This document shows, piece by piece, positions 56 through 47,379 of a DNA stretch of 48,668 nt (position 1 is the first letter of the stretch; each line of letters starts with the position of its first letter). Below the pieces are notes generated by a model. That model ran no database searches. It was not told where the DNA came from and saw only the letters and a list, made by a program, of their open reading frames with translations. Made by a program: the position numbers and the translations under genes. Location: the NCBI GenBank assembly GCA_038046365.1, contig JBBSWF010000024.1, forward strand, positions 1 through 48,668. Reading direction: 5' to 3'. This stretch comes from Nanobdellota archaeon (GTDB lineage: Archaea; Nanobdellota; Nanobdellia; Woesearchaeales; JAGWAF01).

Positions 56-145
56 TAAAGGACACAAATAATTGCTAAAGATAGTTGTGTCCTTTAGATA
101 TAGTGGCGGAGATTAATATCTCAATTATTTTTGTCCGCCACTATA
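56..145. repeat. Two adjacent perfect 12-bp inverted repeats (stem-loops 56-67/85-96 and 99-110/134-145)
   Basis: TAAAGGACACAA...TTGTGTCCTTTA (17-nt loop) is followed 2 nt later by TATAGTGGCGGA...TCCGCCACTATA (23-nt loop). Both lie in an A/T-rich stretch directly 3' of the minus-strand gene that stops at 168. Confidence 0.6.
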
Positions 146-167
146 GAAAACGGTTGCTCTGAGCCCT

Positions 168-1322
168 TCATCTAACCATGGAAAGGATGGCCTTGAAAGA
201 ATCATCCGATAAGCTATCACTATACTCCTTGGCGAGTGAACCTGCCCTTTCTTCATCCAGCCTGATCCCCTTTGAAGCCAGTGAAAACCTAAGCAACCCT
301 GAAGAGAGGAACTGGCAGAACTGAGTCACATTGTGCGGCCGCTGCGTGAAGTGGGCGCGCTCAAAATCAATCATAACTGGCTTGTCGCCTTTAGCGATAA
401 GGATGTGCTTTATCGGGCGGGTCATCTCCTCTTTTGAGATGCCTATCTTGTCAAGCTTCCTGCATTGCTGGATCGCAGCCTTCAAGACTTTGAGGATCCT
501 TGGCTTAGATGATCTTTCGATAAAATCAAGAATCGGGATGCCATCTACGAACACATACGCGACGTATAAATCAGATGAATCAATGAACTTCGGGCCGATC
601 CCTTCTTTGCCGAGGCGCTTTAGCATCTCTGCCTCGTGGAGTATGGAAGCGATGGCCTGCGAGTCCGGGTTCTTGACCTTGATCGCGACTTTCTTGCCTT
701 TGAATCGGCTTGTGAAGACCATGCCTCTCTTGCCCTTGGCGAGGTAGGCTATGCTCTTGAATCCGTCACCTTCTAACCTCTTTCTTGCATCGGACATGAC
801 AAACCTGACGACAAGGAGATCCTCGAAGAAAACATGCTGGCGGTCCAGCTCCTTGAAATCGTATAAAAGCTGTCTTGCGCACTCTTCCACTTTCTCCGGT
901 CTAGTAAGGGATGAGTAGGACGCGATTATCTGGCCTTCCCTGGACAGGTGGTTGAGGGCTTGATGGAGGAACCTGCACATCGTCTCATAACCGTGCTTGC
1001 CTCCGACGAGCGCTTGATCGGTGAGGCCCTGCTCAGCTGGAAGGTAAGGCGGGTTGAAGATGATTGTGTCAAAGACACCTTTGACACTCGAGAAAAGATC
1101 GGAGACTTTGTAAGCGATCTTATCATGGGGATTGTTCTTCTTCGCATGATCTATAGCTTCTTTGTCGATGTCAGTAGCTAGGACGCTTGTGACTTTTGAA
1201 GAACCTGCTGCGGTGAATGCCTGGATTCCTGTCCCTGTGCCCATGTCAAGGACTTTGCCATACGCGAGAACCGCGACGTGCTTGGCAAGCAATGCAGAAT
1301 CCTCTTGGGGTTCGTAGACCAT
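168..1322 (-). CDS. Fusion protein: N-terminal SAM-dependent N-methyltransferase (HemK/PrmC/Mtq2-like, NPPY motif) plus C-terminal small protein-kinase-like domain
   Basis: 384-aa ORF. The N-half has LDMGTGTG (SAM motif I) and IFNPPY (amino/amide N-methyltransferase motif). The C-half has a kinase-like glycine loop plus Lys (AKGKRGMVF..GKKVAIKV) and VMIDFERA (DFG-like), but no HxD catalytic loop. Confidence 0.7.
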   Translation of the reverse strand: MVYEPQEDSALLAKHVAVLAYGKVLDMGTGTGIQAFTAAGSSKVTSVLATDIDKEAIDHAKKNNPHDKIAYKVSDLFSSVKGVFDTIIFNPPYLPAEQGLTDQALVGGKHGYETMCRFLHQALNHLSREGQIIASYSSLTRPEKVEECARQLLYDFKELDRQHVFFEDLLVVRFVMSDARKRLEGDGFKSIAYLAKGKRGMVFTSRFKGKKVAIKVKNPDSQAIASILHEAEMLKRLGKEGIGPKFIDSSDLYVAYVFVDGIPILDFIERSSKPRILKVLKAAIQQCRKLDKIGISKEEMTRPIKHILIAKGDKPVMIDFERAHFTQRPHNVTQFCQFLSSGLLRFSLASKGIRLDEERAGSLAKEYSDSLSDDSFKAILSMVR

Positions 1323-3915: not shown

Positions 3916-4623
3916 TCATTGAGCCATAACATGATCCGCAATGAGAAATCCTAGACCGTGATGTATTCTACCGTCATAGACCCCATTGACGTAATCCTCA
4001 AAAATGCCCCAGGGTTTGTGGTAAAGATAAGCTACCCTTTCAAGATCAAACATCAAGGGGCACGCTCGAAGAAACGCGAACTCCTTGAGCAAGTACCAGA
4101 CGCCCTCTTGGACCGCTGGCCCAATCCCGCCCGAATCCTTTAATTTGGGTTCAAGCACAGACCGGGTCTCACGACGAGCACTTTCGGAAAAATGTGGATT
4201 GGACCAGTATAACTCCTTGATCTCCCGGATGGCTTGTCCATAGATCGGATTTCCCTCAACATCTTGAGTCCATTCTATCACCGAGAACCGATCCTTGACA
4301 TGATCTTCGAGAGATCCTATCGCTCTCTTGCAATGGTTTTGGAGAGTGTTCCCATTTAATCTAGCTTTTTGTCTCGCTTTGTTCCCGGAATAACCCAACG
4401 CCTTATAGGTATGTTCAGCCGGCACATCCGGAACCATTACGATAGCTTGAGAAAACACTCTTGATGAGAACTTGATGAGGTCGCTTATCCGATCCTTATT
4501 GAAGTAGCTATTTCCAGGGCTCATACCTATCACGCAGATTCCGCTGTCTCTTACGATCTCATAGCCGACCCGAGCTGCGTTGCCTGTCCTTCCCTGTCTT
4601 ATGCACAAAACCATCTCAACCAC
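3916..4623 (-). CDS. Cyclodipeptide synthase (CDPS), NYH-type
   Basis: 235-aa ORF (GTG at 4623, first ATG at 4614). VIGMSPGNSYF matches AlbC GISAGNSYF (catalytic Ser37/Asn40). WYLLKE matches AlbC YVLAE (Tyr178/Glu182). YLYH matches AlbC CYH (Tyr202/His203). Length and overall collinearity are typical of CDPSs. Confidence 0.8.
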   Translation of the reverse strand: MVEMVLCIRQGRTGNAARVGYEIVRDSGICVIGMSPGNSYFNKDRISDLIKFSSRVFSQAIVMVPDVPAEHTYKALGYSGNKARQKARLNGNTLQNHCKRAIGSLEDHVKDRFSVIEWTQDVEGNPIYGQAIREIKELYWSNPHFSESARRETRSVLEPKLKDSGGIGPAVQEGVWYLLKEFAFLRACPLMFDLERVAYLYHKPWGIFEDYVNGVYDGRIHHGLGFLIADHVMAQ

Positions 4624-4729: not shown

Positions 4730-5764
4730 ATGGACTCTAAAGACCTGAAGATCCTCAATATCCTGGCACAAAACTGCAGAATCGCAAACACCACTATCGC
4801 GACGGCGCTCCACATCTCCAAAGACACCGTAACATACCGGATCAGGCAACTCCAGTCACAAGGATATCTTAGGCAGTACATGCTTTTTGTGGACGCCAGG
4901 CGGCTAGGATTCACAAGGTACCACATACTCATACGATTCGACCCTGCCATTGAAGACAAAAAGAAAATCATCGAAAGGACAGCAAGGCACCCATTTGTCA
5001 TGTGGATAAACACCTTCATAGGGCGCTATGACGCCCAAATAATAGTCGATGCATCAAACGGCTTTCACCTCAACTCAATTCGGGAAGAGTTATTTAGAAC
5101 AGCAAAACACGGAATCCAGGAATACACTGTACTCACACACCTGCTCGACTTGGAATTTACTCAGCTTAGCCCAATCATTGATGTTGAAACGAGTTTCACA
5201 AGAAAGGACGATTCCTCTTTTAGCAAAAGCCTAACCACACGAAATTTTCCTGTCGGTGCTGACTTCGACAGATACCTCCCTTTAAGGGTAGAGAATGAGA
5301 TCCTGCGTCTTCTGGCGGACGATCCATGCAGCTCGCTTGTCGATATAGCATCCAAAGTCGGCACAGATAGACAGACAGTGAAGAAACATATACAAACCCT
5401 CATAAACCACAAAGTCATCCTGAATTTCGGCGGCATCACAGACCATTCAAAGTTCGGATTCATCACTTACTACCTTCTTGTCCGAATAACACAGGACACT
5501 CCATTACAGACACTAAAACAACCATTTGCATCGCTACATAACATATTCTATGCCGGACGCATGCTTGGGGACTATGACATGATCATTTACCTAAATGCCC
5601 GAAATCCTCAAGAGTTGAATGAAAGCATCGAGTTATTCAAATCAAAACTTGGCAAGCATATCCTACACTACGACCTTCTAGTCCAAGACCGAGTCCATCA
5701 CTGGAGACAGTATAGCGCCGGGATCCATGACCATCTGGTAAAATCCAAAGAAAATCAAGCGTAG
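4730..5764 (+). CDS. Tandem (duplicated) Lrp/AsnC-family transcriptional regulator
   Basis: 344 aa with two HTH_AsnC-like segments (LDSKDLKILNILAQNCR..; ENEILRLLADDPCSS..DIASKVG), each followed by a RAM-like region. Divergent from the CDPS gene across a 106-nt A/T-rich gap. Confidence 0.7.
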   Translation: MDSKDLKILNILAQNCRIANTTIATALHISKDTVTYRIRQLQSQGYLRQYMLFVDARRLGFTRYHILIRFDPAIEDKKKIIERTARHPFVMWINTFIGRYDAQIIVDASNGFHLNSIREELFRTAKHGIQEYTVLTHLLDLEFTQLSPIIDVETSFTRKDDSSFSKSLTTRNFPVGADFDRYLPLRVENEILRLLADDPCSSLVDIASKVGTDRQTVKKHIQTLINHKVILNFGGITDHSKFGFITYYLLVRITQDTPLQTLKQPFASLHNIFYAGRMLGDYDMIIYLNARNPQELNESIELFKSKLGKHILHYDLLVQDRVHHWRQYSAGIHDHLVKSKENQA

Positions 5765-5795: not shown

Positions 5796-6827
5796 TCATC
5801 TCCAGTAGACTTCGATCTGGTCGGTGCGCAGATAAGGCTTGATGTCGATCTTGTCTAAGGTGAGGGATATCGGCTGAGCTTTGTATTGAAGGATGCCAAG
5901 CCACGCGATCATCGCAGCATTGTCGACTAGGAATTGATTCTCTGGGGAGGCGAACTTGGCATTTCTCTCCTTGCACATGATCCCGCACATCTCTTGGAGA
6001 CGTTTATTGCAGGCGACGCCTCCACCTAGCAGGAGCTCTGATTTCCCGCAGTGGGCCATCGCGCGTTCAGAGACTTCTACAAGCATCGCGAAGACGGTTT
6101 CCTGGACAGAGAAGGCGAGATCAAAATCGTTTAATGTTCCCCCTTCGGTGGAACTTAAACGATTTTGGGTGTTAGACGATTTCATTGAGACAATCTTCTG
6201 TTTAAGGTTAGTGAAGAGGCCACCGAAAGTGACGTCCATCCCCTTGACGCTGTAGGGGAGATGGATGAGGTTTGTTCCATTGAGGGCCAGCTGCTCGACT
6301 TTCGGACCGCCGGGGAATCCTAATCCTAATTCTCGCGCGAAGGAATCGATAAAGTTGCCCACTCCGCCGTCGATGGACTCGCCGAAGACCCGATATTTCC
6401 CGCCGTCATAGGCGATGATCTGAGTGTTGGCGCCGGATGCATAGAGCATGACTGGGTCTTGCATGCCAGTGCGGAGACGGCCAATCTCAAGGTGGGCGAC
6501 ACAATGGTTGACTCCGATGACCGGGATCTTGTGGAGAACGTGAATAGACCTTGCTACGTCGCATCCTACCTTGAGGGCGTTGCCGATGCCTGGAGATTGG
6601 GAGTAAGAGATGATGTCGATATCTTTGATCTTGAGACCTGCTTTGTTCAATGCCTGATTGAGGATCCTTCCACAGACATCGACGTGATGCTCGCCCAACT
6701 TGAACGGAATGAGTCCGCCTTCCTCGGTGGTGTAGAGATCCTTCTCGTTGGCAAGGACGTTGCCTTTGTCGTCCATGATGGCGATGCCGAATGTGTGGGC
6801 AGTGGATTCTATGCCTAGGGAGAGCAT
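5796..6827 (-). CDS. kae1: tRNA N6-adenosine threonylcarbamoyltransferase Kae1 (stand-alone, not fused to Bud32)
   Basis: LGIESTAHTFGIAI N-terminus, metal-binding NHCVAHLE motif, and GGGVACN near the C-terminus. 343 aa. Confidence 0.9.
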   Translation of the reverse strand: MLSLGIESTAHTFGIAIMDDKGNVLANEKDLYTTEEGGLIPFKLGEHHVDVCGRILNQALNKAGLKIKDIDIISYSQSPGIGNALKVGCDVARSIHVLHKIPVIGVNHCVAHLEIGRLRTGMQDPVMLYASGANTQIIAYDGGKYRVFGESIDGGVGNFIDSFARELGLGFPGGPKVEQLALNGTNLIHLPYSVKGMDVTFGGLFTNLKQKIVSMKSSNTQNRLSSTEGGTLNDFDLAFSVQETVFAMLVEVSERAMAHCGKSELLLGGGVACNKRLQEMCGIMCKERNAKFASPENQFLVDNAAMIAWLGILQYKAQPISLTLDKIDIKPYLRTDQIEVYWR

Positions 6828-13789: not shown

Positions 13790-14182
13790 TTACCACTTCT
13801 CGACTGATAGGCCCGGGACATGCTTGAAGTGATCGATGTTGCGGGTGACTATAGTCGCGCCATGGCTGACGCATATGCCTGCGATGATGGTGTCAAAAGC
13901 GCCGATAGGGGTGCCTTTCTTGCGCAGAAAATTGTCAATCTCGATCTCCTGATGGACGCTGTCAAGGTCATATCCTATCGGGTCTAGAGCGTCAAAGAAT
14001 CTAAGAGCGTCTTTGAACTGCTTGCGGTTCTCCCGCGCCTTCGCCCCAGCAAGGACTTCCTGGGCATTGATTACAGTGGTCGAGAGCCGTTCGTTGTCAG
14101 CGGACAGTTCTTTGAGCTTTTTCACAGCGTCTTGGTTGTTCTTTAATATCGCGATTATCAAATCGCTATCAATAACTTTCAT
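13790..14182 (-). CDS. vapC: PIN-domain toxin VapC
   Basis: 130 aa. MKVIDSDLIIAIL N-terminus (first acidic residue) and FDTIIAGICVSHGATIVTRNIDHFKHVPGL C-terminal PIN signature. Confidence 0.8.
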   Translation of the reverse strand: MKVIDSDLIIAILKNNQDAVKKLKELSADNERLSTTVINAQEVLAGAKARENRKQFKDALRFFDALDPIGYDLDSVHQEIEIDNFLRKKGTPIGAFDTIIAGICVSHGATIVTRNIDHFKHVPGLSVEKW

Positions 14183-14427
14183 TGAATAGGCCTCTTCCTG
14201 CGCTTCTCCCAGTCAGCATCAAAGCGGCGCCGGTATTCCTTCATCGACGATTCCAGGCCTTTCTCCTCCTCTTTACTCATCTTCCACGCGCCGGCGAACT
14301 CCATCAGGTCCGGTTTTTTCTCATGGAGCAGCCTGACGAACATATCGGAGAAGCTCTCGTCAGCCGGTTTGGCCTTTGAGAGCTCTTTGTATACTCTATG
14401 TTTGATAGTGATGGTCTTGAACGACAT
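14179..14427 (-). CDS. vapB: VapB-like antitoxin
   Basis: The 82-aa product from ATG 14427 (MSFKTITIKHRVYKELSK...) overlaps vapC by 4 nt. The longer ORF to 14556 is a low-complexity extension. Confidence 0.6.
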   Translation of the reverse strand: MSFKTITIKHRVYKELSKAKPADESFSDMFVRLLHEKKPDLMEFAGAWKMSKEEEKGLESSMKEYRRRFDADWEKRRKRPIQ

Positions 14428-14554
14428 GATTATGTTTATGTTCAACATATACTTAAACTTTTGCCCCGGCCTCTCCAGAGAATGTCTTGCTCGCGGAGAG
14501 GATCTCGAAAGATTATTAAATAAGCTAGCATTATTTGAACTAAGGAGAACTAAC

Positions 14555-14788
14555 ATGACTCAAGCGCTCGTGCAACTCAGTGAGAATTCGAACAGGGTAT
14601 TGAACATCGTCAAAGCAAAGTATAACCTCAAAGACAAGTCGCAGGCAATAGAAGCGGTCATCCATCACTATATCGACTGCCAGGATGAGCCGGAACTGAG
14701 GCCTGAATTCGTGGCGAGGATATCCAAGGCTGAATCAGGCAGATTCGTCAAGGTCGCTGACTTCAGGAAGCGATACGGTGGGGATTGA
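14555..14788 (+). CDS. Small antitoxin-like protein (DUF2683-like) upstream of a RelE-like remnant
   Basis: 77 aa from ATG 14555 (MTQALVQLSENSNRVLNIVKAKYNLKDKSQAIEAVI..), preceded by AAGGAG. Its stop overlaps the ATG of the RelE-like frame (TGATG). Confidence 0.55.
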   Translation: MTQALVQLSENSNRVLNIVKAKYNLKDKSQAIEAVIHHYIDCQDEPELRPEFVARISKAESGRFVKVADFRKRYGGD

Positions 14789-26874: not shown

Positions 26875-27345
26875 TCAATAAGGTTTCTTCTTTGAAGAGT
26901 CTTTCCAGGCAACAAACGGGGCGAGCTGGTCTGGAGAGCAGATCCTTTTCTTTGTGAACTTCCTCTTTGAAGGCAGGCCTTTAATTGCATCCAAGATGCC
27001 CATATCAGAGAAACCTGCCTTATCGGCTACTTTGCCGCTCGCGGCGAAAAAAACCACATTGATCCTTGCCCAAAGAATAGCTGATAGGCACATCGGGCAC
27101 GGCTCGCAAGAAGAATAGATAACACAATCTGCAAGATATGGGGATTTGAGCTTCTTTGACGCTTTCCTTATAGCATTAACCTCAGCATGGCAGGTGGGAT
27201 CGTTTCTCTTGAACACCTCATTGTGCGCTCTAGCGATGACCTTGCCTTTCCTGACGATCACTGCGCCAAACGGACCGCCATGAGCCTTCTTGACGCCACT
27301 AACTGCTTCCTTGATGGATTCTTCGATGAATGATTGGTGAGACAT
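26875..27345 (-). CDS. CMP/dCMP-type zinc deaminase (TadA / guanine-deaminase-like)
   Basis: HAEVNAI ... SCEPCPMCLSAI zinc-binding motifs. 156 aa. Confidence 0.8.
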   Translation of the reverse strand: MSHQSFIEESIKEAVSGVKKAHGGPFGAVIVRKGKVIARAHNEVFKRNDPTCHAEVNAIRKASKKLKSPYLADCVIYSSCEPCPMCLSAILWARINVVFFAASGKVADKAGFSDMGILDAIKGLPSKRKFTKKRICSPDQLAPFVAWKDSSKKKPY

Positions 27346-27461: not shown

Positions 27462-27534
27462 GGGGCTATAGGGTAGCTTGGTATCCTTTGCGGTTCGGGA
27501 CCGCAAGACCCCGGTTCGAATCCGGGTAGCCCCA
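27462..27534 (+). tRNA. tRNA-Pro (anticodon CGG)
   Basis: Acceptor GGGGCTA/TAGCCCC, D arm GGGT..ATCC, anticodon stem TGCGG/CCGCA with loop TTCGGGA (U33, CGG, G37), and T arm CCCGG-TTCGAAT-CCGGG. No encoded CCA. Confidence 0.85.
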
Positions 27535-27635: not shown

Positions 27636-27693
27636 TTCTTCTGGTTTTCCTTCAGAAATCTTTCTTAAGACGTGAAACAAAGAAGAAAGCGGT
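27636..27693 (+). promoter_or_regulatory. Conserved upstream block (promoter plus leader), copy 1, of the tRNA-scaffold genes
   Basis: 56 of 65 positions (27636-27700) are identical, without gaps, to 30937-31001. Contains A/T-rich AAATCTTTCTTAAG about 20 nt before the GCGGT leader. Confidence 0.5.
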
Positions 27694-27856
27694 GCCGGCG
27701 TAGGATAACCCGGTAATCCGCAAGACTGAAACCCTTGTGACCTTCCAGATCTTCGGGCATAAAAATCCTGCGGATTTTATGGTTCGAACCGCTTCGCGGT
27801 TCAAACTTTCAAATGCCTTTCGGTGAATCGGAGGGTTGAATGTCCCCGCGCCGGCG
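27694..27856 (+). ncRNA. tRNA-scaffold RNA with a ~100-nt structured insertion in its 3' half (anticodon-loop reading GAA)
   Basis: GCCGGCG-TA-GGAT-AACCCGGTA-ATCC-G-CAAGA-CTGAAAC-CCTTG gives acceptor, D arm and anticodon arm (A31/C39 mismatch). The 3' end TCCCCG-CGCCGGC-G is identical to the gene at 30995. Between them are hairpins 27758-27781 and 27786-27802 and two GGTTCRAAC T-loop-like motifs. Confidence 0.5.
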
Positions 27857-27879: not shown

Positions 27880-28098
27880 TCAGATTTCTACGGCGACTTC
27901 CTGTACTTCAACCATACGGATCGGGCCGTTCTCGTGCTGAGGTGAATCAAGGTAAAGTTCGATGGCCTCTTTGATATTCTTCAACGCTTCCTCCTTGGTC
28001 CTGCCCTGGGAGATGCAGCCTGGGAGGTCAAGAGCTTCGACGACAAAATATCCATCCTCTCCAGGGTACACGATTATCTTGAATGTTTTCATCGGCAT
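27880..28098 (-). CDS. hicB: HicB-family antitoxin (second copy)
   Basis: YFVVEALDLPGCISQGRTKEEALKNIKEAIELYLD is closely similar to the copy at 9180. Confidence 0.8.
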   Translation of the reverse strand: MPMKTFKIIVYPGEDGYFVVEALDLPGCISQGRTKEEALKNIKEAIELYLDSPQHENGPIRMVEVQEVAVEI

Positions 28099-28128
28099 TC
28101 CACCTCTGATCCTTTTTTCAATTTAAAT

Positions 28129-28347
28129 CTATCTCAAGCACCTATTGAATTCATCGACAGTCAAGCCAGCTGACCTGATTATCGCCCTGAGCGTGCCACG
28201 GTCAAGCTCCTTGTGAAGCGGGATAGTGAGCGACTCACTTCCTTCCTTTATCATCCTCACATGGCTCCCTCTTTGGCGGTCAGCAGTATAACCGAGCTGG
28301 GCCAACGTCTTGATCACTTCACTGCCTGAGACCCTAGGCAAAGCCAT
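28129..28347 (-). CDS. hicA: HicA-family toxin (second copy)
   Basis: From ATG 28347: MALPRVSGSEVIKTLAQLGYTADRQRGSHVRM.. The ORF track extends it to 28452. Confidence 0.75.
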   Translation of the reverse strand: MALPRVSGSEVIKTLAQLGYTADRQRGSHVRMIKEGSESLTIPLHKELDRGTLRAIIRSAGLTVDEFNRCLR

Positions 28348-28513
28348 CAAAAAATGAGAAGCTCTATGTTTAAAGTGCGTTTTGGCAAGAAAGCCGGAAG
28401 CTGTGACCTTTTCTAGGTATGTTTTCGGCTCGATCGGAGGAATTCTGGCCAAATCAACATTTGGCCGAATCTTTTTCGAAATTGTCGGAATTAGAGGATT
28501 AATGTAACGAGAT

Positions 28514-29728: not shown

Positions 29729-30820
29729 ATGTCTGAAAACTCCGATGATGGATGGACTATCTTCCTGCCGAAGGAAAGGAGAGAGGTGGAGCTCGATAAG
29801 AAAGACCTCCTGATCATGCAGACCCTGAGCGAGAATTGCAGGACAACCTTGCCTGTGATGAGGCGTATAGTGGGCTTATCAAAGAGCAGCATACTCAACC
29901 GGATAGAAAGACTTGAACGGATAGGGGTCATAAGAGGATATTCAACGATCGTCAACATACATCGACTCGGTCTGAGGATGTTCAGCGTGTTGATCTCATC
30001 TAATATGACTTTGAATGAGAAGATTGAGTTCGGCAGATCATGCGAAAAGATTCCATCCCTGAACCAAGTCCTGACCTTCCAGACCGGGCCATGGGATCTC
30101 ATGCTCCGACTCTATGCGAAGGACAATCGGTATCTTGATCACATCCTGACCCAGATCACGGCGAAGGGAAAAATAGCAGACCTGGAGATACTTGAACTCG
30201 ATGACTGGTTCTTCCTTCCTATAAATTATCTGCAGGTAGAGACGCATCTGGACAATCACTGCACAAAATCTGACACTTCTTTCCAGCATATACTGCGCAA
30301 GAGGAAACCGGTGCTTGATCCGCGCCATGACATAAAAGACATCCGGATCCTGGGCGTATTGGCCAAGAATCCGAGGATCAGCCTCAGCCATCTGGGAGAG
30401 AAGGCTGGAATGTCCGCAGACGCGGTCAAGGATCGCATCGCCAGGCTCGCAGACCAAGGGATCATAGGCCACTTCTTCGCAAACCTGGACCCCTATATGC
30501 TCGGACTGAGCGGATATGTCTTGTTCGTGCAAGTCTTTGATAGGTCACGGATGAAACAGATGATCGAATTCCTGATGCGGCAGCCTCAAATGCAAGGTGG
30601 CGTGCTGAAATATACTGGAGCCTGGAACCTACAGGCTTTCCTTGTAGTAAAAGACGTCATGGACCTTCGGGCTTTTGAGGAGAATTTCATCTCGCATTTT
30701 GGTGGTAGCATCCATAAGTATCTCATCGCACAGCTGGCTGAGCAGACGTACTACTCACTATTCCCGGCTGAGATACAGAAAGTGGCGGAAGAGTCAATCT
30801 CTGAGCATGCTCCTCGATGA
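29729..30820 (+). CDS. Tandem (duplicated) Lrp/AsnC-family transcriptional regulator, paralogue of 4730..5764
   Basis: 363 aa with two HTH_AsnC-like segments (LDKKDLLIMQTLSENCR..; DIKDIRILGVLAKNPRISLSHLGEKAG), each followed by a RAM-like region. Confidence 0.7.
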   Translation: MSENSDDGWTIFLPKERREVELDKKDLLIMQTLSENCRTTLPVMRRIVGLSKSSILNRIERLERIGVIRGYSTIVNIHRLGLRMFSVLISSNMTLNEKIEFGRSCEKIPSLNQVLTFQTGPWDLMLRLYAKDNRYLDHILTQITAKGKIADLEILELDDWFFLPINYLQVETHLDNHCTKSDTSFQHILRKRKPVLDPRHDIKDIRILGVLAKNPRISLSHLGEKAGMSADAVKDRIARLADQGIIGHFFANLDPYMLGLSGYVLFVQVFDRSRMKQMIEFLMRQPQMQGGVLKYTGAWNLQAFLVVKDVMDLRAFEENFISHFGGSIHKYLIAQLAEQTYYSLFPAEIQKVAEESISEHAPR

Positions 30821-30936
30821 TGCGTCTCTGCTTTCATCGGGTTTTCTTCCGACTAATCACCAACAACTTCCGGAAAATCTGACTAAACTCCGTATAATCC
30901 TCATCTGTGCTGATGTTTTTCTGACCAACTGCAGCA

Positions 30937-30994
30937 TTCTTGCGGTTTTTCATCAGAAATCTTTCTTAAGGCGAAGAATAAAGAAGAAAGCGGT
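30937..30994 (+). promoter_or_regulatory. Conserved upstream block (promoter plus leader), copy 2, of the tRNA-scaffold genes
   Basis: See 27636..27693. Same register relative to the GCGGT leader and the GCCGGCG acceptor strand. Confidence 0.5.
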
Positions 30995-31107
30995 GCCGGC
31001 GTTGGCGAACCAGGTACGCCGCTAGGTTGAGCTCCTAGTGTCTGAAAGGACTTCGGGGTTCAAATATCTTGCGGTTTACCGTAGGATTGGAAATCCCCGC
31101 GCCGGCG
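30995..31107 (+). tRNA. Class II tRNA (anticodon GAG, Leu-like) with a 29-nt BHB intron at position 59/60 (31065-31093)
   Basis: Acceptor GCCGGCG/CGCCGGC, D arm GGCG-AACCAGGTA-CGCC, anticodon arm CTAGG-TTGAGCT-CCTAG, long variable arm T-GTCT-GAAA-GGAC-TT, and T stem CGGGG/CCCCG. BHB: TTCA/TGGA 4-bp helix flanked by two AAT bulges, with a 9-bp inner helix. Splicing restores the T loop TTCAAAT. Confidence 0.7.
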
Positions 31108-31181
31108 CCGCCTCACTTTCTCTGAACAATCACTCACTTACCCTCACAAACATTATTATACCATTCTTTTTCCATCAGGCC

Positions 31182-32111
31182 ATGATGGCAACAGATAGAA
31201 TCCTCGTGACGAGCTACGTCGATCCTGACATAGATGGAATATCCTGCATGGTGGCTTATTCAGAGCTGTTGCGCGCCGAGGGGAATGATGTTATCCCTGT
31301 GATATTTGGCGAGCCACAGCAGGAAGTCGAATTTGTTATCAAGCGATTCGGCATAAGACTCCCTCCGCTGGGCGGAGACAATCTAACGTATGATAAAATC
31401 ATCCTGCTAGACGCAAGTGAGCCAAGACACATGGCATCTGGACTTGATGCCGACAAGGTCATCGAAATAATAGATCACCGGAAATCAAACGACGCGCATC
31501 TCTTCAAGAACGCCAGGACTCAGATCGAGCTGGTAGGGGCAGCGGCGACACTTGTGGCAGAGAGGCTGCGCGAGAGATGCGTGACTCCATCGAAAGAAGC
31601 GGCGATACTGTTGTACAGCGCTATAGTCTCGAACACGCTAAACTTCAAGGCAAGCGTGACAACACTCCGCGATCGGGATATGGCTCATTGGGTGAACCAG
31701 ACCGCCAAACTAGGCCCTGAGTTTCCAACTGAATTCTTCAAAGCGAAATCCGACCTCACAGGCGAACGGCTGCGCATACAGATAGATCGCGATTTTGCGA
31801 TATCTGAGAAAAACGGAAAGATCCTGGGAATCTCCCAGATCGAGATGGTAGGGGCAAGAGAATTAGTGAAGACAAGAGCTGCTGAGATCATGGTTATACT
31901 GGATGAGCTGGCCCGGCGGGAAAGCACGGGGATAACGTTCCTCACAATCGCGGATGTAGGCGAGGGGATAAACGTGCTAGTCACTCCTTTCCCAGACACA
32001 CTCTCTCTGCTTGAGAAAGCGCTAGGGGTGAGGTTCGAAGACGGAATCGCTGTTCTCAACAAACTGCTATTGAGAAAAGAGATCGCGCCGATGGTGAAAG
32101 ATCTGCTCTAA
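31182..32111 (+). CDS. DHH-family phosphoesterase (family II pyrophosphatase / DHHA2-like)
   Basis: ILVTSYVDPDIDGISCMVAYSELL (DxD motif) and IIDHRKS (DHH-type motif). ATG 31182 lies about 25 nt after CATTATTATA. The ORF-track start at 31038 runs through the tRNA gene. Confidence 0.7.
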   Translation: MMATDRILVTSYVDPDIDGISCMVAYSELLRAEGNDVIPVIFGEPQQEVEFVIKRFGIRLPPLGGDNLTYDKIILLDASEPRHMASGLDADKVIEIIDHRKSNDAHLFKNARTQIELVGAAATLVAERLRERCVTPSKEAAILLYSAIVSNTLNFKASVTTLRDRDMAHWVNQTAKLGPEFPTEFFKAKSDLTGERLRIQIDRDFAISEKNGKILGISQIEMVGARELVKTRAAEIMVILDELARRESTGITFLTIADVGEGINVLVTPFPDTLSLLEKALGVRFEDGIAVLNKLLLRKEIAPMVKDLL

Positions 32112-42368: not shown

Positions 42369-44981
42369 ATGGGCGACGATCAAAAGGGGGATTCGAGCGA
42401 GCGCACTACTCCAGATTTCAAAGAGCTCGCGAAGACTGAATACGAGCAAAAATACGGCTTCCATGACCCTGAAGAATCAGTGATGAGAATACCCAAAGGA
42501 TTGAGCCATGACGTGGTCAAGGCGATCTCTGCCGCAAAAAGAGAGCCCAAATGGATGCTTGACATACGACTGGCTGCATTCGAGATATTCCTCGCGAAGA
42601 AGATGCCAACATGGGGCGGGGATCTCTCAAAGATAGACTTCGACAACATTACATATTATCTGAAACCGTCAGAGAACACTGGACGCGACTGGAAAGACGT
42701 GCCGGATCGTATAAAGAAGACGTTCGAGAGGCTCGGCATCCCTGAAGCAGAGCAGAAGTTCTTAGGCGGCGTCGGAGCGCAATACGAGTCCGAATCAGTG
42801 TATCATTCTCTACGGGATGACCTGTCGAAACAAGGGGTGATCTTCTGTGACATGGACACGGCCCTGCGCGAACATCCAGAGGTCGTCAAGAAATTCTTTG
42901 GCACTATTGTGCCTTCGGGCGACAACAAGTTCGCCGCTTTAAACACCGCGGTCTGGTCAGGAGGCAGCTTCGTATACGTTCCCAAAGGGGTGGCAGTGAA
43001 ATTACCTCTGCAGGCGTACTTTCGCATCAACGCGAAGAACATGGGACAGTTCGAGCGAACGTTGATAATAGCTGACGAAGGCGCTTCGGTTCATTACATC
43101 GAAGGATGCTTTGTCAAAAGAACACTGATCAAGACCCTCGGTGGATTGAAACCCATCGAAAGCATCAACGTAGGGGATCATGTCTTGACCCATACTGGAG
43201 AGTTCAGGCCAGTATACGATCTGCAGCGCAGGAAACATAACGGAATACTTTGCACACTACGCTATTTCGGGGATTCGAGGCAGACAATCAAGATCACTGG
43301 GGGCCATCCGGTCTTTGCTGTCCGCAGGACTAACAAGGATGCCAAGAATTCAACATGGAATCCTCAATGGATTGAAGCAGGCCAGCTCAATAAAGGGGAC
43401 TACATCGCTATCCCAATAGACCGCACAGTCATCTCCCACAAGGACAGGTTCTTCCCGATTGAGATGGGCAGTAAAAGCCACCCTCTCCCAACGATCCAAT
43501 ACAGATTCGAGATGAACGGCAGTTTCTTCAGGCTCGCAGGCTACTACCTGGCTGAAGGAAGTGTAATCAACGACCATCACCTCACATTCACCTTCAACAA
43601 GAACGAACGCGATTATATCGATGATACCAAATCATTGCTGGAGGAGCATTTTGGCAAAGAGCCGATCGAAGGGAAAGAATATAACGGGGGAGTCACGCTG
43701 ACCCTTTGCAGCACCCCTGCGGCTCGATTCTTCGCAAAAGAGTTTGGAAAAGGCGCAGCCAACAAGTCATTACCTCCATGGTTCATGGCAGAGGATCCTA
43801 AAAAACAGGCAGAGTTCATCAAAGGCTATTGGCGCGGCGATGGAAACTACTTCTTCAAAAAGTATCCGTGGGGAACCAAGCGCATGTTCAGAATAAATAC
43901 TATCTCTGAAAAGCTCGCAGAACAAACAAGGGACATCCTGCTCAGGTTAGACATCTTCGCTTCGATAAACGTATGGAATAATATCCCTCCAAGAAAAACA
44001 GGATATGCGGTCTATGTCGGGGGCTCATTCATTCAAGAATTCTCGCACATTGTTGGATCAGAGAGCTCTGGAGAGGTTGCGACTCCGGTCGAAACTGGAG
44101 GGACACAAACCCTCCTGCAAAAGACCGCCGTCTCCTACGCGCACATCACAGAAAAGCACGCTTTTGTCCCGATCCGGCAGATCATCAAAGAAGCGGTATC
44201 TGGTCTTGACGTCTACAACTTCAGCGTCTTAGAGAATGAATCTTATGTCGCTGGGGGCATTGTCGTACATAACTGCACAGCGCCTGTCTACTCATCAGAC
44301 TCGCTGCATGCCGCGGTCGTCGAAGTCATCGCGCACAAAGACGCGAAGATACGCTACACAACAATACAGAACTGGTCAGGCGACGTCTACAACCTGGTCA
44401 CAAAAAGAGCGATGGCACGCGAGGGCGCGACTGTCGAGTGGATTGACGGCAACCTGGGATCGAAGCTCACGATGAAGTATCCATCTGTGATACTCGCTGG
44501 AAAAGGGGCTCGGGCGGACATATTATCCGTCGCTTACGCAGGCGAAGGACAGCACCAGGACGCTGGAGCGAAAGTGATACACCTAGCGCCAGAGACCACG
44601 TCGCGGATAATCTCCAAATCCGTGAGCAAAGATGGGGGTCGGTCGAGCTATAGGGGTATGGTCCGAATCGCGAAAGGGGCTATCGGGGCCGCATCTTCTG
44701 TGCGATGCGACGCGCTGATCCTGGATGATCGGTCCAGGTCAGACACATATCCAACAGTGAAGGCAGAAGAAGAGCAATCCACTATCGCGCACGAGGCGTA
44801 TGTAGGCCGCATCGGAGAGGACCAGCTGTTCTACCTCATGTCCAGAGGACTGCCTGAGGCAGAGGCGCTCGCATTGATCGTGCTGGGATTCATCAACGAG
44901 TTCACAAAAGAGCTGCCGATGGAATACTCCATCGAGATGAACAAACTGATACGCCTCGAGATGGAAGGGAGCGTCGGGTGA
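42369..44981 (+). CDS. sufB: Fe-S cluster assembly protein SufB, interrupted by an in-frame intein
   Basis: SufB N- and C-exteins (..ASVHYIEG | CTAPVYSSDSLHAAVVE..AKIRYTTIQNW..) total 481 aa around a 389-aa insertion. Confidence 0.9.
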   Translation: MGDDQKGDSSERTTPDFKELAKTEYEQKYGFHDPEESVMRIPKGLSHDVVKAISAAKREPKWMLDIRLAAFEIFLAKKMPTWGGDLSKIDFDNITYYLKPSENTGRDWKDVPDRIKKTFERLGIPEAEQKFLGGVGAQYESESVYHSLRDDLSKQGVIFCDMDTALREHPEVVKKFFGTIVPSGDNKFAALNTAVWSGGSFVYVPKGVAVKLPLQAYFRINAKNMGQFERTLIIADEGASVHYIEGCFVKRTLIKTLGGLKPIESINVGDHVLTHTGEFRPVYDLQRRKHNGILCTLRYFGDSRQTIKITGGHPVFAVRRTNKDAKNSTWNPQWIEAGQLNKGDYIAIPIDRTVISHKDRFFPIEMGSKSHPLPTIQYRFEMNGSFFRLAGYYLAEGSVINDHHLTFTFNKNERDYIDDTKSLLEEHFGKEPIEGKEYNGGVTLTLCSTPAARFFAKEFGKGAANKSLPPWFMAEDPKKQAEFIKGYWRGDGNYFFKKYPWGTKRMFRINTISEKLAEQTRDILLRLDIFASINVWNNIPPRKTGYAVYVGGSFIQEFSHIVGSESSGEVATPVETGGTQTLLQKTAVSYAHITEKHAFVPIRQIIKEAVSGLDVYNFSVLENESYVAGGIVVHNCTAPVYSSDSLHAAVVEVIAHKDAKIRYTTIQNWSGDVYNLVTKRAMAREGATVEWIDGNLGSKLTMKYPSVILAGKGARADILSVAYAGEGQHQDAGAKVIHLAPETTSRIISKSVSKDGGRSSYRGMVRIAKGAIGAASSVRCDALILDDRSRSDTYPTVKAEEEQSTIAHEAYVGRIGEDQLFYLMSRGLPEAEALALIVLGFINEFTKELPMEYSIEMNKLIRLEMEGSVG
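43107..44273 (+). mobile_element. SufB intein with LAGLIDADG homing-endonuclease domain (389 aa)
   Basis: Begins with Cys (CFVKRTLIKT), ends VVHN, followed by +1 Cys (CTAP). LAGLIDADG blocks LAGYYLAEGS and IKGYWRGDGN. The frame is continuous with both exteins. Confidence 0.85.
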
Positions 44982-44985
44982 GATC

Positions 44986-47379
44986 ATGAAAAAACCCGGG
45001 AAAGAAATCCTGCCGACAGGCGATAGCGGGAGTCTAGCCAAGAAAAACCTGGATTCATCAGACATGACCATGCTAGTCGAATCCCAAGAAATCAATCAAC
45101 ATAAGATAGAGCGATTCTGCAACACAGACAACACAATTGTCCAGAGCGGAAAGACTTCAATCTCACGGATCGGGAACAATACCGCCGGCATAAGATTCAT
45201 GACAATAAATGATGCCCTAAAGATCGACGCCGCACTAAAGGACCGACTCTCAAAAAATACCTTGTTCCCGATATCTCCACAGGCTGAAGCGAACATGGCT
45301 TGCTTTGAAGCAGGGATATTTCTTGATGCACCCGAGAGAGCAGCAGGGACATTCCGGCACATACTATTGTCTGACGCCAACCTCGCAGACCGCAGCATAG
45401 TGGCTTGCGGAACCGGGTCCGACGTGACACTAATAATAGACCAGAGGTCAGCGACAGACGCAGCCGCGAGAAGGAACGGATACCTCTCTTGCAGGCTAAG
45501 CGAGAGATCCACACTAATGATAATCGAGCTCCAAAGATTCAACAGCAAAGTCTCGCAAGCCACTACGATCAACGCTGAAGTGGGCAAGATGGCCAAGCTG
45601 ATACACATAGTAGCAACGATCGGCGGGGGAGAATCAGACAACCAGAACAACTTCATCATCACAGGACACGGCGGAGAAATCACCCAAAGGCATGTGACAC
45701 TAGCATCAGGAAAAGAAGACCACAAGACCCACACGCAGATCATCCACCGGTCACAATGCGGAAAATCGGACGTCGCAGTCAGATCCGTGGCTGATGGCAA
45801 CGCGAAAGTCGTATCGCACTCGACTGTCAAGATAGAAAGCTCCGGGCAGAAGACCGCCTCGCGAGTGACTGATCATTCGATGATGATATCGCCTGGAGCC
45901 AGATGCGAGTCGATACCATCGATGGAGATACTCGCAAATGACGTGCAGGCCGGGCACAGCGCGTCCACTAGCCAACTCGATCCAGAGAACATATTCTACC
46001 TACAAGCGCGCGGATTGGATGAATCAGAAGCCAAGAAGCAGATTGTCACAGGGTTCCTCAAAGGAATATTCGATGAAGAGAACCTGCCATCTTCGAGCGG
46101 AGTCGTATGCCTCAATGAATTGGTCGAGCACAGGTTCGAGACACTGCACCACGATCCATTGACAAGCGGGATGAACCGAGGCGACTTCCCGATACTCAAC
46201 TCGAAGATCAATGGAAAACCTCTTGTCTATCTCGACAATGCGGCGACGACACAGAAACCAAGGATGGTGCTCGACGCGATGGAGTCATTCTATCTCAAGG
46301 ACAACGCCAACATCCATCGGGGAATACACACGCTCGGCGAGCGGGCGACCAATCACTACGAAGCTGCGCGCAAGAAAGCCGCGAATTTCATCAACGCGAA
46401 GCCAAGCGAGATAGTGTTCGTTCGAAACGCCACAGAGGCCTTGAACCTTGTCGCCTATACTTTGGCGCGACAGAAGATGCGCGTAAGCGACAGGATACTA
46501 CTGACTGCGATGGAACACCACTCCAACATCGTTCCATGGCAGTTGGCGTGCGCAGAGACAAAGGCGATGATCGACGTGGTTGAAGTGACTCCTGATGGGG
46601 TGCTTGATTCTGAGTCCTTGCGACGAGGACTGGCGCAGAGCCCGAAGATATTCTCATTCACCCATGTGTCCAACGTGCTAGGCACGATCAATGACGCCAA
46701 GGAATTGACAAGGCGAGGGCACCAAGCAGGAGCGATCGTGGTCGTGGATGGAGCGCAGTCAGCTCCGCACATGCTTGTCGATGTCAAGGATATAGACTGC
46801 GACGTGTTTGTGTTCTCAGGGCACAAGATGCTGGGGCCCACAGGAATAGGAGTGCTTTACATGAAACAAGGATTGCTAAACGAACTGCCTCCTTTCCTAG
46901 GGGGCGGCGGGATGATAAAAGAAGTATCGTTTGAGAAAGTGTCGTTTAAGAGCGGACCTGAGAGGTTTGAAGCAGGCACGCCAGACATCGCAGGAGCGGT
47001 GGGACTAGGCGCTGCCATCGATTACCTCGAGACGATCGGGATGGAGAGAGTCAAGACGCATAACGACTCGCTTGTGGCATATGCCTGGGAAAGACTATCT
47101 TCTCTCAAGCAGGTGAAACTGTATGGGCCTGCCGCCCTGTCTATGAGGGCCGGAGCGATATCATTCAACCTCGGCGACATACACGCGCACGACGTCAGCA
47201 GCGTGCTAGACGAAGAAGGCGTCGAAATACGGGCAGGGAACCACTGCGCGATGCCATTGCTTGATCGGCTGGGTGTCGTAGCTACCTGCCGCGCGTCATT
47301 TTACGTCTACAATTCCAAAAATGATATCGACCAGCTGATCGAGGCGCTCAAGAAAGCGATAAAGGTGTTTAGGTTATGA
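44986..47379 (+). CDS. sufD-sufS: SufD-SufS fusion protein (SufD scaffold domain plus type II cysteine desulfurase)
   Basis: aa 1-395 are SufD-like (..FYLQARGLDESEAKKQIVTGFL..). From Met396 (ATG 46171) comes a full SufS: FPILNSKINGKPLVYLDNAATTQKP, PLP-Lys FSGHKMLGPTGIGVLY and catalytic Cys RAGNHCAMP. Confidence 0.85.
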   Translation: MKKPGKEILPTGDSGSLAKKNLDSSDMTMLVESQEINQHKIERFCNTDNTIVQSGKTSISRIGNNTAGIRFMTINDALKIDAALKDRLSKNTLFPISPQAEANMACFEAGIFLDAPERAAGTFRHILLSDANLADRSIVACGTGSDVTLIIDQRSATDAAARRNGYLSCRLSERSTLMIIELQRFNSKVSQATTINAEVGKMAKLIHIVATIGGGESDNQNNFIITGHGGEITQRHVTLASGKEDHKTHTQIIHRSQCGKSDVAVRSVADGNAKVVSHSTVKIESSGQKTASRVTDHSMMISPGARCESIPSMEILANDVQAGHSASTSQLDPENIFYLQARGLDESEAKKQIVTGFLKGIFDEENLPSSSGVVCLNELVEHRFETLHHDPLTSGMNRGDFPILNSKINGKPLVYLDNAATTQKPRMVLDAMESFYLKDNANIHRGIHTLGERATNHYEAARKKAANFINAKPSEIVFVRNATEALNLVAYTLARQKMRVSDRILLTAMEHHSNIVPWQLACAETKAMIDVVEVTPDGVLDSESLRRGLAQSPKIFSFTHVSNVLGTINDAKELTRRGHQAGAIVVVDGAQSAPHMLVDVKDIDCDVFVFSGHKMLGPTGIGVLYMKQGLLNELPPFLGGGGMIKEVSFEKVSFKSGPERFEAGTPDIAGAVGLGAAIDYLETIGMERVKTHNDSLVAYAWERLSSLKQVKLYGPAALSMRAGAISFNLGDIHAHDVSSVLDEEGVEIRAGNHCAMPLLDRLGVVATCRASFYVYNSKNDIDQLIEALKKAIKVFRL

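Follow-up and report, generated by a model that had tools for sequence, protein, structure and literature searches.

Non-canonical bulge-helix-bulge (BHB) introns, among them introns between tRNA positions 59 and 60, are known in Archaea (PMC4090602), and DPANN genomes, including those of Woesearchaeota, contain disrupted tRNA genes and have incomplete predicted tRNA sets (PMC5829648). In this study we analysed a tRNA gene with anticodon GAG at positions 30995-31107 (+ strand) of contig JBBSWF010000024.1 from a Nanobdellota archaeon; the whole 48,668-nucleotide stretch is called the window below. Standard annotation misses this gene, which probably decodes the commonest leucine codons of the organism, and it offers a concrete example of why DPANN tRNA sets look incomplete (PMC5829648). 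We conclude with fair confidence that it is a functional, independently transcribed and spliced CUY-decoding tRNA that delivers leucine. The interest of the locus lies less in its intron than in the family it reveals, in which at least ten anticodons occur on a single acceptor/T-arm scaffold with a single T-loop intron.

Archaeal tRNA genes with BHB introns have been described in Thermoproteales, Nanoarchaeota, ARMAN and other DPANN lineages (PMC4090602, PMC5829648). The window gene has the same hBHBh' motif, the same cut rule and an intron in the T loop, and it shares with them the occurrence of similar intron sequences across many tRNA genes and the failure of standard finders to detect these genes. 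It differs in its host, a mesophilic groundwater Woesearchaeon, in that splicing is here predicted from sequence, and in that genes with different anticodons have this intron in common, together with an identical acceptor stem and T arm. The window intron is a further example of a known archaeal intron class.

With canonical archaeal tRNA-Leu the window gene has in common the long variable arm, a Leu anticodon and the meaning of CUY as leucine. In contrast to canonical tRNA-Leu, it has G73 instead of A73, C37 instead of the usual G37, T loop TTCAAAT instead of TTCGAAT, and a D arm with a 4-bp stem and a 9-nt loop, where canonical tRNA-Leu has a 3-bp stem and an 11-nt loop; the variable-arm loop of its family is not conserved.

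Variable-arm tRNAs with anticodons other than those for Leu or Ser are described in reviews for nematodes (PMC3333845, PMC4033280) and bacteria (PMC7609411) only. Our literature search found none from Archaea, which is not proof of their absence, and the family looks like an undescribed archaeal variant. Nematode nev-tRNAs are class II tRNAs with Gly or Ile anticodons that are charged with leucine (PMC3333845), and the archaeal family likewise combines a variable arm with non-Leu/Ser anticodons (GAA, GAC, GAU, UAU, ACG and UUC) in members that sit beside members with Leu anticodons, UAU occurring in both. Unlike nev-tRNAs, which are eukaryotic, have an A73-type Leu identity and mostly read rare codons, the family is archaeal and has invariant G73, and its window member reads the commonest Leu codon. 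Bacterial allo-tRNAs, which have Ser identity, resemble the family in G73, the long arm, diverse sense anticodons including UAU and their metagenomic origin (PMC7609411). However, the window tRNA has a 7/5 geometry and not the 12-bp 8/4 or 9/3 geometry of allo-tRNAs, and the family is archaeal, carries a T-loop intron and has anticodons concentrated on NAN, especially NAG.

The split and tri-split tRNAs of Nanoarchaeum equitans and Caldivirga maquilingensis (PMC4033280) provide a further comparison, as the family likewise combines identical 5' (1-27) and 3' (49-73) modules with different anticodon/variable-arm modules. In one related contig, no 5' exon could be recognised within 100 nt of the 3' part of a second member (member B) on its upstream side. 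Unlike split tRNA genes, the window gene is contiguous, and separate halves were not demonstrated.

The GAG tRNA gene and its predicted intron

The elements of the gene, all on the + strand, are as follows.
30995-31001 / 31100-31106: acceptor stem GCCGGCG / CGCCGGC, 7 bp, with TT after the 5' strand
30995-31064: 5' exon, tRNA positions 1-59, from the ARAGORN cloverleaf after splicing, covariation and the family model
31004-31020: D arm GGCG-AACCAGGTA-CGCC, with a 4-bp stem and a 9-nt loop containing GG, followed by G26
31022-31038: anticodon arm CTAGG-TTGAGCT-CCTAG, U33 at 31028
31029-31031: anticodon GAG, a CUC/CUU reader; C37 is next, at 31032
31039-31053: variable arm T-GTCT-GAAA-GGAC-TT, 15 nt with a 4-bp stem
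31054-31058 / 31095-31099: T stem CGGGG / CCCCG
31059-31064: T loop T54-A59, part of the 5' exon
31059-31062 / 31088-31091: central 4-bp helix TTCA / TGGA
31065-31093: predicted 29-nt intron at 59/60, the sole strict hBHBh' of the gene, the removal of which is needed for tRNA detection
31065: T at the 5' end of the intron, the third nucleotide of the 5' bulge (AAT, 31063-31065)
31066-31074 / 31079-31087: intron hairpin ATCTTGCGG-TTTA-CCGTAGGAT, 9 bp with loop TTTA
31092-31094: 3' bulge AAT, of which AA (31092-31093) is intronic
31094-31107: 3' exon, comprising T60 (31094), the 3' strands of the T stem and acceptor stem, and G73 (31107)
31108-31111: trailer CCGC, read from the sequence

A preliminary description of the gene had proposed a class II cloverleaf with all arms and anticodon GAG, interrupted by a BHB intron of 29 nt whose excision recreates TTCAAAT. 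On re-reading the sequence we found every element of 30995-31107 at the coordinates given there. We searched the gene strictly for the BHB motif, taken as a 4-bp helix that lies between two 3-nt bulges, one per strand, with a further helix on either side. A single motif was found, and it predicts the splice sites previously proposed (h5 GGG, H5 TTCA, bulge AAT, h' ATC...GAT, H3 TGGA, bulge AAT, h3 CCC). After removal of 31065-31093 in silico, ARAGORN recognized an 84-nt tRNA-Leu(gag) with all arms, in agreement with the cloverleaf as first drawn. Position 59/60, said to be an archaeal intron site, is indeed among the listed non-canonical positions (PMC4090602).

The unspliced gene was called neither by ARAGORN, whose sole tRNA in the window was a tRNA-Pro(CGG) at 27462-27534, nor by Rfam RF00005, which at the gathering threshold yielded the same tRNA-Pro only. 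A permissive Rfam scan of 30900-31200 produced just a weak tRNA-like (mascRNA) match bracketing 30995-31106. Strict BHB motifs are frequent by chance, with 668 in the window versus 576-645 in five dinucleotide shuffles. Removal of a motif created a new tRNA only for 31065-31093 in the window and for none in the five shuffles; one further match was an artefact overlapping the intact tRNA-Pro.

G18G19, the 5-bp anticodon stem, the 7-nt anticodon loop, U33 and T54-T55-C56-R57-A58 are all present once the intron is removed, and only then; the purine at position 37 of canonical tRNAs is replaced by C (31032). The mature tRNA of 84 nt has 7/5 geometry and a D arm of the class I type (4-bp stem, 9-nt loop). 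The fold of the precursor is more stable than that of shuffled sequences (z=-4.4), and its centroid contains the D, anticodon and variable arms together with the intron hairpin. CCA is not encoded, the 3' strand of the acceptor stem being followed by GCCG (31107 onward). Trailer and G73 are complementary to the leader GCGGT (30990-30994), so that the acceptor helix of the precursor could be extended to 12 bp; the same leader and trailer occur in L004 and L006 (related contigs described below) and in member B. We also considered whether the variable arm could be a second intron, but it offers no possible BHB, and the covariation of its hairpin is that of a structural arm.

With 29 nt between positions 59 and 60, the primary transcript would be unable to form a T loop. 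In the pathway that we propose, T54-A57 would pair with TGGA of the intron and form a 4-bp helix with two 3-nt bulges, placed between the T stem and the intron hairpin (hBHBh'). Each bulge would be cut behind its second nucleotide by the archaeal splicing endonuclease, ligation of the exons by an RtcB-type enzyme would restore TTCAAAT, and CCA addition would follow. The mature 84-nt GAG tRNA would then read CUC and CUU, the most used Leu codon pair of the organism, and deliver leucine despite G73 and C37. Because AAAT is repeated at both junctions, cuts anywhere from 57/58 to 60/61 would yield an identical mature RNA in the window gene. We place the splice position at 59/60 because of the BHB geometry and the 3' bulges of relatives (TCT, ACT, CGT etc.), 60/61 being indistinguishable from it by sequence. 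When cuts are placed behind the second nucleotide of each bulge, the joined exons have the T loop TTCAAAT in the window gene, and the T loop is likewise restored in all 17 aligned homologues.

Conservation, covariation and upstream region

Contigs of three related species were found via the pyrophosphatase encoded beside the tRNA (82, 79 and 73% identity). Wherever these contigs reach, an orthologous tRNA lies at the same place, between an AsnC-type regulator and the DHH pyrophosphatase. The orthologues in L004/L005 and L006 keep GAG, C37, G73 and the trailer CCGC. In these contigs, pair 28:42 is C-G where the window has T-A, 31:39 is A-T for G-C and 12:23 is T-A for C-G. In one variable-arm pair T-G is replaced by T-A, the intron hairpin differs at several pairs, and in L006 a T-G pair of the central helix has become T-A. 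Loop positions 32 and 38 vary, as do stem pairs, while GAG and C37 stay (window, L004/5/40, L006 and L078).

GTDB genomes were searched with a pattern of the T arm and the 3' acceptor strand separated by a free gap of 0-30. Eight loci matched, and the gap was 28-30 nt in all of them; their titles were Candidatus Woesearchaeota, Candidatus Nanoarchaeia and Nanoarchaeota, plus three 'uncultured Methanosarcinales' whose labels are unconfirmed. In metagenomes, the same pattern with a free discriminator matched 98 loci. Thirteen of these bear an intron and all 13 have G73; the intron-less matches are unrelated class I tRNA-Thr/Lys genes. About 20 relatives, from Woesearchaeota/Nanoarchaeia metagenome-assembled genomes (MAGs) and metagenomes, retain the cloverleaf, the 59/60 intron and the intron hairpin.

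We aligned 17 distinct sequences to the cloverleaf and BHB structure (38 pairs). Of all cells, 95.9% were paired, and 15 of the 38 pairs had changed on both sides; none of 500 shuffles was as good as the observed covariation, and controls with slid partners were 39-51% paired. The acceptor and T stems carry no information here because the search pattern had fixed them. Double-sided changes were found in the D, anticodon and variable-arm helices and in five pairs of the intron hairpin, and the central helix was 100% paired, alternating between U-G and U-A. Minimum free energy folds of the T-arm region gave the T stem and the intron hairpin in 17/17 sequences, with TTCA/TGRA pairing possible in each. 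U33 and the 7-nt anticodon loop are invariant in the 17 members, and a covariance model of the family scored the window gene at 126.6 bits.

Upstream of the tRNA, about 55 nt are almost invariant among the orthologues.
30937-30994, + strand: promoter-like conserved upstream region, near-identical in L004/L005/L006

Within this region, the TATA-like element TTTCTTAAG (30962-30970) sits roughly 26-33 nt ahead of +1. A TTAA core at -30 to -25 was present in nine of the 13 family members with upstream sequence. The region is probably a promoter, and the near-fixed distance of the TATA-like element implies that transcription would start within a few nucleotides of +1. This spacing recalls the leaderless tRNA transcripts that have reportedly been seen in Nanoarchaeum equitans. 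In MAG SMAG_U8127, a shared hairpin, GGCGCGAAGAGCGCC, precedes all three members instead of a TATA-like element.

A family of long-armed tRNAs with G73

The members of the family are listed by anticodon, with our locus numbers.
GAG: window, L004/5/40, L006, L011, L036, L069/89, L078
CAG: L013/112, L018/93, L055
UAG: L015
AAG: L016/49/79
GAA: L014, L066, window member B; L069b by model only
GAC: L014b; L018b by model only
GAU: L017
UAU: L017b (acceptor GCCGGGG, 7-bp variable arm)
ACG: L012 and a truncated copy
UUC: L072

ARAGORN did not accept L069b and L018b as tRNAs. Different anticodons occur on one contig or in one MAG in four cases, namely the window (GAG and GAA), L069 (GAG and GAA), SMAG_U8127 (AAG, GAA and GAC) and L017 (GAU and UAU). 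The first 27 nt are identical in the window gene, L072 (UUC) and L078.

The preliminary description had pointed out C37 and G73 as oddities of this one tRNA. Both bases are real, but they are conserved traits of a lineage and a family rather than peculiarities of a single gene. C37 is fixed in the window's clade (window, L004/5/40 and L006) and occurs also in L078 (GAG), L015 (UAG) and L018b (GAC), whose membership is tentative. Nearly all other members have A37, the sole G37 being that of the Ser-like L017b; among canonical Leu tRNAs, A37 is found in the tRNA-Leu(UAG) of a related genome and G37 in others from the same samples. G73 is invariant in every complete family member, even with the discriminator left free in the search. 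Since they are conserved, neither base marks decay. Together they characterize a family in which long variable arm, discriminator base and Leu/Ser identity are no longer linked as textbooks describe.

Two loci have unusual arrangements. L017 carries, at 98-427 (- strand), a GAU gene on the family scaffold and a UAU gene 100 nt away from it; both are long-armed tRNAs with G73 and an Ile-type anticodon. The body of the UAU gene is Ser-like, with G37, a variable arm of 7 bp and a 22-nt intron at 59/60, and the spacer contains a partial duplicate of this second gene's variable arm and a run of N. On L012 (34-149, - strand), a tandem second ACG copy consists of the 5' exon and the start of the intron without a 3' exon, and is either a truncated pseudogene or a 5' half.

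Member B and its counterparts

The second family member in the window lies 3.3 kb upstream of the GAG gene and 160 nt downstream of the tRNA-Pro(CGG).
27636-27693, + strand: promoter-like region of member B, ~85% identical to that of the GAG gene
27694-27856, + strand: member B, with anticodon GAA, A37, a variable arm and G73; its acceptor and 3' end are those of the GAG gene

Its T arm is interrupted twice, by a 41-nt insert (27757/8-27797/8) and by 37 nt (27806-27842), with a micro-exon of 7-8 nt, GTTCAAA, between them. A cloverleaf, called tRNA(gaa) by ARAGORN, was obtained only with two excisions, and the strict BHB search returned nothing for the additional insert of 41 nt. The family covariance model gave partial matches to member B of 38.1 and 20.7 bits. 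Its orthologue in L066 has a single ordinary 59/60 intron.

A 34-nt block of member B, GGTTCGAACCGCTTCGCGGTTCAAACTTTCAAAT, is identical in L004, the relative of 82% identity. There, within positions 1-181, the hairpin, T loop, intron and 3' exon of member B follow a different structured sequence and a TATA-like ATTATATG, and no 5' exon was recognizable upstream as far as the contig end. The L004 gene has either a much longer intron or is split, with only its 3' half at this place.

Codon meaning and charging

CTC is the commonest Leu codon (25.7 per 1000), and CTT is used at 16.6 per 1000. The meaning of these codons was examined in alignments of IleRS, PolB and the DHH pyrophosphatase with 119-150 homologues each. 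Columns at CTC and CTT contained leucine in excess over I, F, V and M and no serine, and were indistinguishable from those at CTA, CTG, TTA and TTG. Columns at TTC and TTT were F/Y, again with no serine. The pyrophosphatase part of this test is independent of the lineage's own code because its homologues are mostly bacterial. The codon columns indicate that the genetic code is standard. Recoding of CUY to serine was rejected on the basis of the Leu-like CTC/CTT columns, the Phe-like TTC/TTT columns and a normal amino-acid composition under the standard code.

Taken together, the conserved GAG, the invariant U33 and the promoter-like element at fixed distance are best read as a CUY decoder that delivers leucine. 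The gene is almost certainly functional and very likely gives rise to a spliced tRNA; that this tRNA is charged with leucine is a conclusion that we favour, though by less. The Leu-box anticodon GAG and the Leu-like meaning of CTC and CTT agree with archaeal tRNA-Leu.

Several observations weigh against this conclusion. Across all three domains A73 is a determinant for leucine, in Haloferax volcanii G73 acts against LeuRS as an antideterminant, and changes from A73 to G73 switch Leu to Ser identity in several systems (PMC9976931); the window gene has G at 31107. H. volcanii tRNA-Leu follows the variable-arm loop rule A47c, G47d, a rule established only for Haloferax (PMC9976931), and the loop, GAAA in the window gene, differs widely among members and is not conserved. 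By established identity rules the tRNA body looks Ser-like. The combination of G73 and a long variable arm is that of tRNA-Ser, though the arm stem measures only 3-5 bp; a Ser anticodon (GCU or NGA) is found neither here nor in any family member. Because the acceptor-end identity marks are Ser-like, the assignment to 'Leu' comes from the anticodon only.

Other decoders and the splicing machinery also have to be considered here. The 875-kb contig L072, which holds the UUC family member, encodes a canonical class II tRNA-Leu(UAG) (~6448-6562, - strand) with acceptor GCGGCGG, A73, T loop TTCGAAT, anticodon loop TTTAGAC and a 29-nt BHB intron near 30/31-31/32. Canonical Leu tRNAs with CAA, UAA and UAG occur in contigs of the same samples and are not assignable to the window's genome, which may hold another CUY decoder. 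No gene for the splicing endonuclease (EndA) was found within the window. Splicing is inferred from sequence; the stretch is present in none of the RNA runs, and the one metatranscriptome reaches only 31261-31490, in the neighbouring gene.

The family can be read in two ways: either Woesearchaeal synthetases follow identity rules unlike those of Haloferax, E. coli, yeast and human, or these tRNAs are charged against their anticodon. Either answer bears on the evolution of tRNA identity and of the genetic code in reduced genomes.

On one rival reading, one body (GCCGGCG acceptor, G73, variable arm and T-loop intron) would be reused for several amino acids, with cognate synthetases reading the anticodon. 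We regard this as a serious possibility that falls short of an even chance. It refines more than it competes with leucine delivery by the GAG tRNA, because the window tRNA stays Leu and the variable arm and G73 would then be no identity marks. It is suggested by the occurrence of GAG, CAG, UAG, AAG, GAA, GAC, GAU, UAU, ACG and UUC on near-identical bodies, by the recurrence of GAA in four lineages and of GAC in two, by the contigs and MAGs with more than one anticodon and the shared first 27 nt noted above, and by the class I type of the D arm. The anticodon loops CTTTCAC (UUC) and CTACGAA (ACG), which match those of E. coli tRNA-Glu and tRNA-Arg, look cognate, with A37 after U36 or C36. However, no domain of life is known to have a long-variable-arm tRNA for Phe, Val, Ile, Glu or Arg, G73 is at odds with the usual A73 of Phe, Val, Ile and Leu tRNAs, and the additional members L069b and L018b fail in ARAGORN. 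Moreover, the 5.3-kb contig L014 carries a canonical class I tRNA-Val(UAC) (- strand, ~4250-4450) with A73 and a ~90-nt intron at 37/38 together with GAA and GAC family members (2107-2217, + strand, was noted), which suggests that the family may be extra rather than standard. Ordinary tRNA-Pro genes occur in the same lineages. If true, the scaffold would provide the first long-armed tRNAs for Phe, Val, Ile, Arg or Glu.

A second rival reading, in which SerRS charges all members irrespective of the anticodon and serine is placed at CUY by regulated mistranslation or the tRNAs have a non-ribosomal use, is in our view unlikely. Invariant G73, the ever-present variable arm and the effects of G73 on LeuRS and on Leu to Ser identity (PMC9976931) point in this direction. 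So do TTCAAAT and the 59/60 intron, which are common to the Ser-like L017b while canonical tRNA-Leu has TTCGAAT, and the precedents of allo-tRNAs (PMC7609411) and nev-tRNAs (PMC3333845). A tRNA-dependent cyclodipeptide synthase is also encoded in the window. Yet CUC/CUU and UUC/UUU columns carry no serine signal, and because CUC is the commonest Leu codon, insertion of serine would harm the whole proteome. An old conserved family with U33 and recurring anticodons favours ordinary decoding, the variable-arm stem of 3-5 bp is shorter than the 6-7 bp of the Ser-like L017b, and the neighbourhoods of three cyclodipeptide synthase homologues hold no family tRNA; a link to this enzyme was not supported. 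In its broad form this reading would make the family an archaeal counterpart of nev- and allo-tRNAs, in which one synthetase (SerRS by known rules) charges every member and Leu, Phe, Val and Ile decoding becomes ambiguous or the tRNAs serve non-ribosomal purposes. We consider that form no less doubtful; the milder one, in which the same scaffold is a normal tRNA for several amino acids, is the more likely of the two, though short of an even chance.

A pseudogene or chance tRNA-like sequence (a decayed copy or integration-site remnant, neither spliced nor used) would fit the failure of standard finders, the pyrimidine at position 37, the absence of expression data for the locus, the further disruption of sister gene B and the truncated copy in L012, but is very improbable given the perfect cloverleaf after splicing, the synteny, the compensatory substitutions in every variable helix including the intron hairpin, the conserved U33 and promoter-like region, and the lack of such candidates in shuffled sequence (0) and of copies in viral contigs (0).

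Host and neighbourhood

The window encodes archaeal Kae1, a family B DNA polymerase, IleRS and a Suf cluster. The best named relatives of IleRS are from Candidatus Woesearchaeota and Nanoarchaeota (~55% identity), and the stretch is present in groundwater metagenome runs. By its gene content and relatives the host is archaeal, a member of the uncultured groundwater Woesearchaeota (DPANN). A genome scan with a 640-aa neighbour protein gave no match.

The tRNA is flanked by two genes.
29729-30820: tandem AsnC-type regulator, upstream of the tRNA
31182-32111, + strand: DHH/DHHA2 pyrophosphatase, downstream of the tRNA

Beyond the three close relatives, the nearest proteins to the pyrophosphatase (~45-50%) are from Patescibacteria (candidate phyla radiation, CPR), a sign that DPANN and CPR in groundwater may have exchanged genes. 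A viral or mobile origin of the tRNA was rejected, as the family tRNA had no match in viral contigs (IMG/VR) and the locus is syntenic in related species.

Other features of the window

The cyclodipeptide synthase (3916-4614, - strand) is recognized by TIGR04539 (128 bits) and Pfam CDPS (109 bits), and its closest solved structures are YvmC/cyclo-Leu-Leu synthase and AlbC. To our knowledge, cyclodipeptide synthases are uncommon in archaea. The gene adjoins a tandem AsnC-type regulator (4730-5764, + strand), and the pair is kept in L117. The regulator directly upstream of the GAG tRNA is a paralogue (26% identity) of this regulator.

A deaminase gene at 26875-27345, next to the tRNA-Pro, was considered as an adjacent TadA for A34 anticodons or C37 editing and rejected, because its product is a guanine deaminase homologue (1TIY, E=1e-41; TadA, 1e-21, below the NCBIfam cut-off). 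A HicAB toxin-antitoxin pair (27880-28452, - strand) lies between member B and a periplasmic binding protein gene and is absent from this place in L004. A VapBC toxin-antitoxin pair (PIN domain and VapB antitoxin) is located at 13790-14556 (- strand).

SufB (42369-44981, + strand) is a protein of 870 aa whose match to the SufB model falls into two separate parts (26-248 and 620-870), which indicates an insert of ~370 aa, possibly an intein. The next gene encodes a SufD-SufS fusion of 797 aa (44986-47379, + strand). Several PolB homologues of ~1250 aa also match in two stretches.

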